A stretch of DNA of 10,783 bases, taken from the IMG/VR virus record IMGVR_UViG_3300025288_001461; one strand, written 5' to 3'. The DNA comes from a virus (taxonomy: Duplodnaviria > Heunggongvirae > Uroviricota > Caudoviricetes). This document shows, piece by piece, positions 478 through 10,200 of this stretch. A program made the translations under genes and the position numbers. The notes beneath the pieces were generated by a model. The model saw nothing but the letters and a program-made list of their open reading frames with translations. It was not told the origin of the DNA and made no database searches. Positions within the stretch are counted from its first letter, which is position 1, and every line of letters starts with the position of its first letter.

Positions 478-1085
478 TTTCTTATACTACAGGCTGAAAT
501 ATATTTTCTTAAATTATTCCAAAAATTATCCGACATTTCAGTATGAGTTGGAAAACAAAATTGTTGACCAACATCTGTAAGTAAAACCTTTTGAGTTTCT
601 TCATTTGTAAAAGTTAAATCTATGTCTTTTCCCATGACTATTTCATTATAATTACAGAATACTAATGTGTTATTTTGTGGTGTTATTCTAGAGGCCATTA
701 ATGTGAAATAATCAGCATTCAAATGTAATCCAGTTTCCTCTAATGTTTCACGAGCGGCTGCTTGTTCAAATGTTTCTAAATAATCCACAAATCCACCAGG
801 TAATCCAACACCACCTCTTTGTGGATTTATATTCCTAACAATGGATAATAATTTAATTCCTGAAATTGTATCAACAGGAATTAATGCTACTGTTACTGGA
901 GTTGGGTTTTTATAAAAATTAAATAAAAACCCCTCTTTTTTTAATAAGGCACTTAGATTTTCCTGTTCTTTAAAAGAACATTTGTTTAGCATTTCTACAA
1001 TTAATGATGACTTATCATTAATGTTTATATTAGATGAGTATAATTCATCTAAAAATCTATTTATAACTTCATTATTGAATTTCAT
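474..1085 (-). CDS. Nudix hydrolase (ADP-ribose/NAD pyrophosphatase-like)
   Basis: Complete Nudix box G-FVDYL-E-TFEQAAA-RETLEETGL (GX5EX7REUXEEXGU), preceded by LPGG and FYKNPTPV. Substrate cannot be assigned from sequence. Confidence 0.9.
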   Translation of the reverse strand: MKFNNEVINRFLDELYSSNININDKSSLIVEMLNKCSFKEQENLSALLKKEGFLFNFYKNPTPVTVALIPVDTISGIKLLSIVRNINPQRGGVGLPGGFVDYLETFEQAAARETLEETGLHLNADYFTLMASRITPQNNTLVFCNYNEIVMGKDIDLTFTNEETQKVLLTDVGQQFCFPTHTEMSDNFWNNLRKYISACSIRK

Positions 1086-1171
1086 TTTTCTCTTTTATTT
1101 ATTTAGCTTAAATTATACCTTATTTTTTAAAACTTCAAAAATTATTATATAAAAAGTAATTTTTCACTAAT

Positions 1172-4638: not shown

Positions 4639-5916
4639 TTATTTTAATAAAGTCTGTTCTCTTTCTGGACCTGTTGAAATAATAGAGATTTTAACTTCTA
4701 ATTTTTTTTCTAAATAATCAAAATAAGTTTTAGCTTTCTTTGGTAACTTATTATAATCACTTATAGATTGAGTTGTTTCTAACCAACCTTTAAATGTTTT
4801 ATATACAGGTGTTAATTTACTTATTTTTTCAATTGAAAATGGCAATACATCAATTTTATTTTCCTGTTCATCTACATAATGTGTGCACACCTGTATTTCA
4901 TCAAACTTATCAAGAATATCCATCTTTGTTATTGCAAGATCGGTAATTCCATTAATTTGAATTGCTCTTTTTAATGCAGGAATATCAAACCAACCACATC
5001 TTCTTGGACGACCTGTTGTTGCACCATACTCTCCACCTAAATCTCTAATTTTTTGACCGACTTCATTATCTTGCTCAGTTGGAAATAGCCCAGAACCAAC
5101 TCTTGTGCAATAAGCCTTAGCAACACCAATTACTTTATATCCACCTGACATACCTAATCCCGAACCTGATGCCGCTTGAGAAGCAACACAATGTGATGAA
5201 GTTACATAAGGATATGTTCCAAAACTAACATCCAACATTGCACCTTGTGCTCCTTCAAACAAAAGTGGTATCTTTTTTTGTTGTAATTTAAATAATTGAT
5301 TTGGAACATCTGAAACAAAGTTTTTAATTTTTTTAGATTGAGCAATCAATTCTTTTAATTCCTTGGTTATATTTAACTTTTGAATTGCTTCAGATTCAGG
5401 ATAAATACTTTTGTAATAAGCAATTAAATTTTCTAATCTATCTTTTAGTGATGACTCATAGAGGTGATGAACTCTAACAGACCTTCTACCTACATTATCT
5501 TCATAAGCTGGACCAATTCCACGACCTGTTGTTCCTATTTTGGCAGAACCAGTTTTTCTCGCTTCTGAAGCCTGGTCAACCAAACTATGAACATTTAAAA
5601 TTAGTGGACAATTTTCTGCGATAAAAAATCTTCCTTCAATATTAACATTTTCCTTATTTAATCCTTCTATTTCTTTTAATAGTGCATCTAAACTTACGAC
5701 AACTCCACTTCCTATATAGCAATTTATATCAGAATGAAGAACTCCTGATGGAATTAAGTGCAATACTGTTTTTTTCCCATCAACCCATAATGTATGACCG
5801 GCATTATGACCTCCATGGAAACGCACCACATGCTTAAAATTCTTTGCAAAATAATCAACAATTTTTCCCTTACCTTCATCACCCCATTGAGCACCAATAA
5901 TAATAGCATTTTTCAT
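4639..5916 (-). CDS. purA: Adenylosuccinate synthetase
   Basis: 425 aa with QWGDEGKG, GGHNAGHT, IGTTGRGIGPAY, FEGAQG, GTYPYVTSS, GATTGRPRRCGW, TKMD and ISTGPER. AAGGGA RBS. Confidence 0.97.
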   Translation of the reverse strand: MKNAIIIGAQWGDEGKGKIVDYFAKNFKHVVRFHGGHNAGHTLWVDGKKTVLHLIPSGVLHSDINCYIGSGVVVSLDALLKEIEGLNKENVNIEGRFFIAENCPLILNVHSLVDQASEARKTGSAKIGTTGRGIGPAYEDNVGRRSVRVHHLYESSLKDRLENLIAYYKSIYPESEAIQKLNITKELKELIAQSKKIKNFVSDVPNQLFKLQQKKIPLLFEGAQGAMLDVSFGTYPYVTSSHCVASQAASGSGLGMSGGYKVIGVAKAYCTRVGSGLFPTEQDNEVGQKIRDLGGEYGATTGRPRRCGWFDIPALKRAIQINGITDLAITKMDILDKFDEIQVCTHYVDEQENKIDVLPFSIEKISKLTPVYKTFKGWLETTQSISDYNKLPKKAKTYFDYLEKKLEVKISIISTGPEREQTLLK

Positions 5917-9120: not shown

Positions 9121-9486
9121 ATGAATAAAAACTCAGATAAGCATTTTGTTATTTACAAAAATGAAACAATCACTAGAATTAATCCTCAACTTGTTTCTAA
9201 ACAACAAATCTCCGATGATGAACTTGAAATTATTAAAAATCTTCACATTCAACGTTTTCTTATTGAAAAATCTTTCATTTCTGGAGATATTGATGCTACA
9301 AACTACAGAGAAGCTTGGGCAATTAATCAGTTTTCTCTTCAACAGGCATGGAAGTTTAGTAAAGATAAAAACTTTCATGTTTTTACTTCTATGCAAGGAT
9401 GTTCATGTCCTAGTATGAATAATTATCCTTATGGACCATATTCTTACTCTAAAACTTGTCGTGTTCATGGTGAAATTACCAAATAA
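9121..9486 (+). CDS. Phage-type hypothetical protein with Cys/His motif
   Basis: LQQAWKF.KD.NFH...GCSCP.M.N...C.VHG resembles a small phage family I recall (LQ.LW.F..D..YH.W..P.C.CP.MDN...CP.HG), unverified. The CxC...CxxH spacing suggests metal binding. Confidence 0.65.
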   Translation: MNKNSDKHFVIYKNETITRINPQLVSKQQISDDELEIIKNLHIQRFLIEKSFISGDIDATNYREAWAINQFSLQQAWKFSKDKNFHVFTSMQGCSCPSMNNYPYGPYSYSKTCRVHGEITK

Positions 9487-9490
9487 CTAA

Positions 9491-9841
9491 ATTTTTGCTA
9501 CAGGTACAACAGGCATTATTTTGGAAAATATTTTAGAACAAACAGTAACCAAATTTTAAAGTGGTCTATTGAGGGGTGATTTGCAAATTGGTTCAAGAAT
9601 TGAAGAAGGAGAAATTGAGATGATTATTTTCTTTTGTAATCCACTTGAGCAACAACCACATGACCCAGATGTAAAAGCCTTATTACGTATTGCCTCTGTT
9701 TGGAATATTCCTGTTGCATGTAACCGTTCCACAGCAGATTTTCTTATATCTTCACCATTAATGAATTAAAATTATGAAAGAAAAATTCAAGACTTCAGCC
9801 ATTACAATAATCGGATGAATCATACAGGAATTAAATCTTGA
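9491..9841 (+). pseudogene. mgsA: Methylglyoxal synthase remnant, 5'-truncated with in-frame stops
   Basis: One frame reads IFATGTTG...[15 protein letters not shown]...IIFFCNPL...[52 protein letters not shown] stops are at 9488, 9557 and 9767. GPLGGD has become GLLRGD and WDP has become CNP. The N-terminal ~40 codons are absent. Confidence 0.9.
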
Positions 9842-9844
9842 TTT

Positions 9845-9874
9845 TTGATTTTTTTCATAATTATGATATAATTT
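9845..9874 (+). promoter_or_regulatory. Sigma70-type promoter of the RNase P RNA gene
   Basis: TTGATT (9845-9850), 16-nt spacer, TG-A-TATAAT (9864-9872). The predicted start site (~9878-9879) coincides with the 5' end of the P1 helix. Confidence 0.75.
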
Positions 9875-9876
9875 GT

Positions 9877-10178
9877 AAAAATTTTGTGGTGAGACAATCG
9901 CAAGTTAATAACTTGAGGAAGTTCAGGACACACGCAAAAGGCGAGTAGGAGATAGTTGTTCGTAAGGATGAGTGAATTAAGGTGTTAACTTTATGCTATC
10001 GTTAATACTACCGTGATATAGTGTGCAACACAAACAGTACTTGAGAACCTTTTGCTTATAAGTACGGGTTGTGGCACCTTTGACCACTTTAAAAGGTGGC
10101 GAGGACAGTGAAAGCTGTAGATTAATGATTGTTACTCGTAAGAGACACAAAATCCTGGCTATGAACCACAAAATTTTT
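9877..10178 (+). ncRNA. rnpB: RNase P RNA (divergent, compact bacterial-type ribozyme)
   Basis: P1: 14 perfect bp, 9877-9890/10165-10178. P2: GACAAUC 9893-9899/GAUUGUU 10127-10133. P3: CAAGUU 9901-9906/AACUUG 9910-9915. CR-I: GAGGAAGUUCAGGA 9915-9928, pairing as P4 with CR-V ACACAAAAUCCUGGCUA 10145-10161 with a bulged U. P5: CACAC 9929-9933/GUGUG 10021-10025, then CAA. P15: CACAA 10029-10033/UUGUG 10069-10073, preceded by GGG-U. P18-like: ACAGU-GAAA-GCUGU 10105-10118, then AGAUUAAUG. P19: CUC-GUAA-GAG 10135-10144. GC content is visibly higher than the flanks. Confidence 0.92.
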
Positions 10179-10200
10179 TATTTTTTTCGGTTCTATTTAT

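Follow-up and report, generated by a model that had tools for sequence, protein, structure and literature searches.

A reduced bacterial-type RNase P RNA with a remodelled P4 helix on an AT-rich metagenomic element, and its relatives in viral tRNA arrays

The window, a stretch of 10,783 nt catalogued as virus of the class Caudoviricetes (IMG/VR record IMGVR_UViG_3300025288_001461), carries at 9882–10173(+) a reduced bacterial-type RNase P RNA of about 292 nt, counted from P1 to P1'. In a permissive Rfam scan its best match was RF00011 at 9886–10166(+), with 36.8 bits and an E value of 1.3e-8 over the full model; no Rfam family reached its gathering score in the window, that of RF00011 being 97 bits. 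Further weak matches from the same permissive scan (RsaOG, PISRT1 and others) had E values above 0.8 and were set aside as chance. The unconstrained minimum free energy fold of the RNA recovers P1, P3, P4 with its one-U bulge, P5, P15/P16 and a P18-like hairpin, and P1, P2, P3 and the P2/P4 pseudoknot topology are all present. The P4 helix of this RNA departs from the canonical sequence on both strands, and the analysis centers on this helix and on the RNAs that share it.

No part of RNase P RNA is more conserved than P4, the helix that holds the catalytic metals. The window reads GAGGAAGUUCAGGAC at 9915–9929 and UCCUGGCUA at 10153–10161. Within these segments, the P4 5' strand AGUUCAGGA occupies 9920–9928(+), equivalent to E. 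coli positions 66–74, and the 3' strand UCCUGGCU together with A361 occupies 10153–10161(+), the strand itself being equivalent to E. coli 353–360. The helix consists of eight pairs and one bulged U and is as long as that of E. coli. A66(9920)–U360(10160), G67(9921)–C359(10159) and U68(9922)·G358(10158) lie on one side of the bulged U69 (9923), and C70(9924)–G357(10157), A71(9925)–U356(10156), G72–C355, G73–C354 and A74(9928)–U353(10153) on the other. Compared with the canonical class A helix (AAGUCCGGG/CCCGGCUU), pairs 67–359 and 71–356 are swapped and 68–358 is flipped to a wobble; the canonical AAGUCC/GGCUU at 66–71/356–360 is replaced by AGUUCA/UGGCU, and the GG step moves from 356–357 to 357–358. 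The canonical residues at 66–71 and 356–360, among them 67, 68 and 71 and their partners, are upper-case in the consensus of both Rfam models, and position 74 is the sole lower-case one. A preliminary description, made from the letters of the window alone, had given the wobble as U9922–G10158, the strand lengths as equal to those of E. coli, A66–U360 and the bulged U69 as retained, positions 67 (A–U to G–C), 71 (C–G to A–U) and 74 (G–C to A–U) as compensated, and the G68–C pair beside the bulge as changed to U–G. All of this was confirmed when both strands were read again.

The bulged-U helix is flanked by GAGGAA (conserved region I, CR-I) and by ACA.AA...UA (CR-V), and both flanks are invariant in all 40 RNAs of the alignment described below, including the GAGGA at 9915–9919(+) that forms J3/4 and the start of CR-I. 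The curated class A model aligns both P4 strands of a relative with an identical P4 (locus L075) ungapped to its consensus. Since Rfam does not model P4 as pairs, the register of the helix is independent of any assumed pairing. The predicted energy of the window helix is −7.1 kcal/mol versus −10.3 kcal/mol for the canonical one, i.e., about 3 kcal/mol weaker.

Pairing in P4 was assessed in two independently anchored sets of homologues. A degenerate scan for the 5' strand (GAGGAARKTCMGGRC), in which the 3' strand was located by a regular expression with positions 353, 356, 358 and 359 left free, returned a series that leads from canonical P4 through intermediates to the form found in the window. 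In the alignment of 5'-anchored RNAs from IMG/VR (A1, n = 40), P4 is 99.7% paired, and four of its eight pairs have changed on both sides: 67–359 is A–U in 21 RNAs and G–C in 19; 68–358 is G–C in 23, U·G in 15 and U–A in two; 71–356 is C–G in 14 and A–U in 26; and 74–353 is G–C in 12 and A–U in 26. P2 is 96.6% paired in the same alignment, with three pairs changed on both sides. When P4 and P2 are taken together, sliding the 3' partner by one to three columns reduces pairing to 14–42%, and none of the shuffled alignments matches the observed pairing or covariation score.

The second set came from one metagenome scan in which AATGAT-N(5-35)-ACAGAA-YCCTGRCTA was fixed and the 5' strand was left free. 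Among the 71 matches with any GAGGAA upstream, 67 read GAGGAAG[U/C]UCAGG and none contained the canonical AGUCC. Deduplication left 53 unique RNAs, 31 of the GUUC type and 22 of the GCUC type, the majority in tRNA-rich loci. In the combined set of 93 unique RNAs (40 from A1 and 53 from the metagenome scan), every pair from 66–360 through 73–354 is formed in 93/93. Pair 67–359 is either A–U or G–C, pair 71–356 either C–G or A–U, and pair 68–358 is most commonly U·G (46 RNAs), followed by G–C (23), C–G (21) and U–A (3). The four variable pairs are 98.9% paired compared with 74.9% after shuffling (maximum 83.1%), and 0/5000 shuffles reach the observed value. Pairing in P4 is thus maintained by selection, as the preliminary description had supposed, and the homologues keep the same register. 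Its compensation is mostly inherited within the lineage and did not arise in the window RNA. The distribution at 68–358 suggests a single purine–pyrimidine flip followed by drift among C–G, U·G and U–A.

Rather than being private to the window RNA, the P4 variant marks a large lineage found on viral and metagenomic contigs. A scan of IMG/VR with the pattern ATCGC-N(12-42)-GAGGAAGTTCAGGAC returned 53 loci. About 38 constant-spacing matches in isolate proviruses, all to one coding sequence, and the match at L139 proved to be coding-sequence coincidences with no 3' strand and were discarded; a separate 14-mer scan of IMG/VR gave matches nearly all due to chance. Twelve viral loci have the layout of the window RNA with the 3' strand downstream. 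Their RNAs are about 165–380 nt long with 33–62% GC and lie on contigs of up to 381 kb; 11 of the 12 loci contain several tRNA genes and lie within tRNA arrays, and L153 contains one tRNA. The variant P4 (GUUCAGGA/UCCUGGCU) is common to the window, these 12 loci and 31 unique metagenome RNAs. Its conservation extends over deep divergence, since the same P4 is found in RNAs of 118–379 nt and 33–62% GC. Three RNAs with this P4 exceed the gathering score of the class A family RF00010 (L075, 170 bits; L122, 112 bits; L128, 100 bits), which places the origin of the lineage in class A. Closest to the window RNA are L119 and L177, both in viral tRNA arrays. With the phage tRNA-array RNAs the window RNA shares the variant P4, the ATCGC-P3-GAGGAA layout and the tendency to shrink; it differs from them in that no tRNA gene occurs in the 40 kb around it. 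By the provisional definition of the phage tRNA-array lineage, it thus has the pyrimidine at 68 and A71–U356 but lies outside a tRNA array. Five other viral contigs (L187, L189, L200, L212 and L218) resemble the window copy in that they encode RNase P RNAs in loci of 7–13 kb without a tRNA gene.

Some members are extremely small. Mini RNase P-like RNAs of about 165 nt occur at L056:456-640(-), L127:667-850(-), L148:5422-5604(+) and L151:3949-4132(+), and further ones at the metagenome loci L363, L370, L384, L393, L411, L413, L426, L432, L437, L442 and L459, where the stretch running from P4 to P4' measures only 118–120 nt. They have the GUUC-type P4, P1–P3, the GGU loop and J18/2, are devoid of any specificity domain, and sit in tRNA arrays on contigs of up to 498 kb.

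The preliminary description had also predicted that the P4 changes would defeat searches for the canonical signature. This is true for searches with the string GAGGAAAGUCC but not for covariance models, given the 170 bits scored by L075 with the same P4; the window RNA falls below the gathering score because its specificity domain is shrunken, not because of P4. Standard annotation misses the RNase P genes of the lineage, most of which are phage-associated and many miniaturised. Neither the window RNA nor the whole window gave a blastn match to deposited phages, and the INPHARED and IMG/VR searches that were run gave no match for the window copy. The literature that was searchable contained no publication on phage or viral RNase P RNA and none with the CR-I consensus string or the assembly accession, and a paper on mycobacterial tRNAs and noncoding RNAs contains no description of extra rnpB copies. 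A large lineage of RNase P RNAs with a remodelled P4, mostly located in the tRNA arrays of big phages, is apparently unpublished.

To gauge how unusual each change is in cells, we ran two-strand pattern searches on sampled GTDB genomes covering three phylum-level groups only. The four changes differ in how unusual they are. The canonical pattern found one rnpB in 33 of 61 genomes, and many of these read GGAC/UCC; A74–U353 is therefore ordinary in cells. G67–C359 with G68 is rare, found in 2/151 genomes of one phylum sample, in each case as the only class A match and therefore in the cell's own rnpB (G445:C1:2968301-2968634(+) and G461:C2:542694-543041(-), in the phylum of G402; both read GAGGAAGGUCCGGAC). 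Here G67–C359 is a natural cellular variant of the pair adjoining the metal-binding residues. U68 with R358 was found in 0/302 sampled cellular genomes (0/151 and 0/151), and A71–U356 in 0/101. The exact P4 of the window occurred in one of 401 sampled genomes, that of the Solirubrobacter isolate URHD0082 (G001), as an extra copy of 287 nt and of the GUUC type. The copy lies in an array of about 30 tRNAs plus a transfer-messenger RNA (tmRNA), on what IMG/VR lists as a 153 kb provirus, and the same genome has a normal class A rnpB scoring 246.6 bits; the two RNase P RNAs are at C3:274685-275007 and C5:302477-302714 (= L294 = L137). Thus, in the samples searched, the variant never occurred in the rnpB that belongs to the cell itself. 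A scan of cellular genome contigs contained one true locus among the matches listed (at least 120), from which no frequency can be derived.

Outside P4, the window RNA can be followed from end to end on the plus strand. P1 is formed by UUUUGUGG (9882–9889) and, according to the fold, CCACAAAA (10166–10173). The P2 5' strand GACAAUC (9893–9899), which pairs with 10127–10133, forms a pseudoknot with P4, and the P3 hairpin AAGUUAAUAACUU (9902–9914) is placed by both the RF00011 match and the fold. Beyond the P4 5' strand, the P5 strand CACAC (9929–9933) pairs with GUGUG (10021–10025) and encloses a shrunken remnant of the specificity domain of about 87 nt (9934–10020). In the fold, this remnant has an outer stem GUAGG (9945–9949)/CUACC (10008–10012) and an inner stem GAUAG (9951–9955)/CUAUC (9996–10000). 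CR-II is not clearly recognisable in it; GUUAAUAC at 10001–10008 resembles CR-III and is tentatively assigned as such, and the motif ..GGAGA..CGUU..AC is also found in mid-size relatives in A1.

J5/15 (GCAACACAAACAG) and P15/P16 follow at 10026–10073, as judged from the fold and the RF00010 consensus GCAAggccAAAUAGG...CGGGUaggcc. In the internal loop, CGGGUUG (10065–10071) follows the P16 hairpin and precedes the P15 3' strand; GCAAC occupies 10025–10029. In class A RNAs the GGU of the P15/P16 loop binds the 3'-CCA end of tRNA; as modelled, the window RNA appears to have this layout of the GGU loop and of the J5/15 GCAA. An extra hairpin between P15 and P18 (10075–10099) is common to the relative L177. 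The P18-like hairpin ACAGU-GAAA-GCUGU (10105–10118) stands directly 5' of the conserved AGAUUAAUGA, as in RF00010, and is followed by J18/2 (AGAUUAAU) and the P2 3' strand GAUUGUU (10119–10133 together, from the alignment). A P19-like hairpin with a GUAA loop, CUCGUAAGAG (10135–10144; RF00011 match and fold), is inserted in J2/4, and ACACAAAA (10145–10152), placed by the alignment and the RF00010 consensus, is J2/4 and forms the A-rich portion of CR-V.

A promoter-like site lies at 9838–9872(+), with overlapping −35 candidates TTGATT at 9838 and 9845 and a TG-extended −10 element TGATATAAT at 9864–9872. It has 10/12 matches including the TG, and transcription from it would begin a few bases upstream of P1. 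The number of such sites in this AT-rich region does not exceed that in shuffled sequences, and the position alone is suggestive. The T-run TTTTTTATTTTTTT (10174–10187) directly 3' of P1 might be where transcription ends; the terminator scan found no canonical terminator.

The helix order and the P2/P4 pseudoknot through J18/2 are those of class A (RF00010; E. coli M1 RNA, T. maritima P RNA), as are CR-I GAGGAA, CR-V ACA.AA...UA and a P4 of eight pairs with a bulged U. The differences are the length (about 292 nt versus about 350–400), the specificity domain of about 87 nt, the extra hairpins at 10075–10099 and 10135–10144, and the P4 sequence. Class B (RF00011; B. subtilis) provides the best-scoring model, and the hairpin between P2' and P4' is at the position of P19; however, P15 of the window RNA forms, together with P16, an internal loop of the class A kind rather than the hairpin loop of class B, and the relatives of this RNA are class A. 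The human H1 RNA (RPPH1) contains GGAAGCUCA at what we take to be E. coli positions 63–71 (CR-I), the same 9-mer as in GCUC-type relatives and one transition away from GGAAGUUCA in the window. Activity of an RNase P RNA is therefore compatible with G67 next to a pyrimidine at 68. The likeness to RPPH1 is convergent or coincidental, the rest of the window RNA being bacterial in type. The human 9-mer was read from the primer GCGGAGGGAAGCTCATCAG (PMC12146000).

In T. maritima P RNA, the catalytic metals are bound by non-bridging phosphate oxygens of A50 and G51 (E. coli 67 and 68), with the O4 of the bulged U52 (E. coli U69) as a further ligand, and a further metal site lies at the tandem G318–G319 (E. 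coli G356–G357) (PMC3488217; PMC4919922). The P4 changes are thus located at the metal-binding active site, as the preliminary description had stated. The residues whose bases are changed in the window contribute backbone ligands, and the uridine is retained; this would explain how the helix can be rewritten as long as its geometry is preserved. Across the lineage, the purine–pyrimidine pair 68–358 is flipped from G–C to C–G, U·G or U–A, and all other elements of the catalytic core are present: GAGGAA, the bulged U, the A-rich J2/4, the GCAA of J5/15, the GGU loop of P15/P16, and J18/2. We propose that P4 was rebuilt pair by pair with its geometry kept, that is, with eight pairs and a uridine extruded between 68–358 and 70–357. 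The usual mechanism would probably be retained, with the bases at 67 and 68 free to vary as long as the helix is kept, and the RNA probably assembles with bacterial RnpA and cleaves the 5' leaders of pre-tRNAs. The wobble-containing and, by prediction, weaker P4 and the shifted GG step may alter metal affinity. Taken together, the comparisons make it likely that 9882–10173 encodes a functional, miniaturised bacterial-type RNase P ribozyme of class A descent, belonging to a lineage found mainly in large phages, in which P4 was rebuilt pairwise.

The window is 25% GC and uses TGA as a stop codon; a mollicute or code 4 origin was rejected, as codes 11 and 4 give identical open reading frames (ORFs). 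Of the three assemblies examined, from JGI, ENA and NCBI, the first two match the window at 100% identity over the RNA region. The element is present in many metagenome samples, its neighbouring proteins being found in 77–89 blocks of the collection; the longest contig on record for the two proteins that were looked up is 137.8 kb, and no block carrying its proteins exceeds 200 kb. Six of the ten ORFs in the window match PHROG families (RNase H-like, NUDIX, hydrolase, two families with unknown function, and PurA-like). The PurA-like adenylosuccinate synthetase at 4639–5916(-) matches Pfam with 540 bits and phrog_1211, and is about 43% identical to bacterial and phage PurA. At 425 aa the protein is full length and is therefore more likely to be an ordinary PurA than the PurZ of Z-genome phages. 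The roughly 40 kb seen around the RNA (the window with L354, L356 and L358) contain mostly ORFans, along with a rhomboid protease, an M3 peptidase, a ParE-like protein, a photolyase and an SF1 helicase, and no Rfam match at gathering score. A neighbouring protein of 626 aa has no relatives in IMG/VR.

Several observations weigh against a functional, phage-borne ribozyme. The folding stability of the RNA only modestly exceeds that of shuffled sequences (z = −1.92) and its Rfam score is far below gathering; with such a modest fold, the case leans on the comparison with relatives, and there the 93-RNA counts refer to unique sequences rather than to independent evolutionary events. In principle, having a U·G wobble next to the catalytic bulge might reduce activity, and the drastically reduced specificity domain may entail a different recognition of substrates. 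The Pfam annotation of the 40 kb around the RNA includes no rnpA; the upstream 121 aa ORF at 9121–9486 was considered as RnpA and rejected, since it has no PF00825 match, is not basic and is Cys-rich. Neither tRNA genes nor phage structural genes occur in the regions seen, eight larger neighbouring ORFs have no PHROG match, and some nearby genes are cell-like (rhomboid, M3 peptidase, photolyase). NCBI labels the element '[archaeon]' (e.g., NCP98045.1, assembly GCA_009994275.1). An archaeal origin is unlikely, the RNase P RNA being bacterial in type; because such an RNA stands behind a sigma-70-like promoter under an archaeon label, this is probably a mis-binned AT-rich element.

These observations bear on the alternatives to different degrees. 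The RNA might be the sole housekeeping rnpB of an uncultured, very AT-rich bacterium with a small genome. In that case the P4 variant would be a trait of the organism's lineage, passed from such hosts to phages or evolved in parallel. The cell-like neighbours, PurA among them, would fit this explanation, as would the frequent strand switching, the lack of a tRNA array and of phage structural genes in 40 kb, the sigma-70-like promoter of the RNA itself and the occurrence of G67–C359 in the own rnpB of some cells. It is nevertheless doubtful: the majority of ORFs fall into no Pfam family, an atypical pattern for bacteria, the ORFs that match phage families include phage-only families of unknown function, contigs and protein-carrying blocks stay within the sizes given above, and the one cellular genome with an exact match carries it as an additional copy, next to a normal rnpB. 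With the nearest relatives L119 and L177 in viral tRNA arrays and the U68/A71 signature unseen in cells' own rnpB among the genomes sampled, the element is judged more likely to be a phage or other mobile element than a cell. Another explanation, which we regard as quite unlikely, concerns the register of P4: U68 rather than U69 would be extruded, with U69 paired to G358 and the catalytic uridine displaced by one position. The two forms have equal nearest-neighbour energies (−7.1 kcal/mol each), and adjacent uridines are indistinguishable by covariation. However, 21 unique GCUC-type relatives sharing this 3' strand carry C68, paired with G358, which leaves U69 as the only U and identifies it as the bulge; relatives with G68 also bulge U69, and both strands align ungapped to the class A consensus. 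It is more improbable still that the RNA is a decaying or non-catalytic copy, whether as a pseudogene or as a decoy binding RnpA or pre-tRNA without cleavage, in which the G68-to-U wobble, the weaker P4 and the loss in the specificity domain reflect lost catalysis. The weaker P4, the reduced specificity domain and the low Rfam score would accord with such decay. Against a pseudogene stand the compensatory changes that keep seven positions paired in 93/93 RNAs, the bulged U, GAGGAA, ACARAA, GGU loop and J18/2, which are invariant or nearly so over 33–62% GC, the 100% identity across assemblies and the resemblance of full-size members with the same P4 to complete class A RNAs; by sequence alone, a decoy role is conceivable. 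The catalytic domain of RNase P RNA alone is, moreover, able to catalyse cleavage (PMC4919922).

Beyond a conventional ribozyme with a rebuilt helix, the RNAs could conceivably represent an undescribed phage or mobile-element ribozyme lineage whose rebuilt active-site helix and shifted tandem-G site bring an altered dependence on metals or protein, or an altered substrate preference; we consider this stronger proposal rather unlikely. If it were true, the RNase P of the element would act in parallel with the host enzyme or independently of it, and the window copy, which has a promoter of its own and lacks a nearby tRNA array, would be a free-standing example. The relatives in any case form a natural mutagenesis series at 68–358 (G–C, C–G, U·G and U–A) in which the role of base identity can be tested against that of backbone geometry. 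They also have a sequence signature, GAGGAAG[UC]UCAGG ... CCUG[GA]CUA, and bear on the way large phages process their own tRNAs and on how small a working RNase P ribozyme can be.

The tRNA arrays that contain the relatives have other features. A GOLLD RNA (RF02032, 172 bits) at L161:3479-3941(-) shares a tRNA array with the RNase P RNA, about 360 nt away, on a 98 kb viral contig, and the array at L137 also holds a tmRNA. The L177 array, whose RNase P RNA is of the GUUC type with U68–A358, encodes at 1065–1139(+) a tRNA with the anticodon UUA, which would read the stop codon UAA; this tRNA is a hint that the phage reassigns or suppresses a stop codon.

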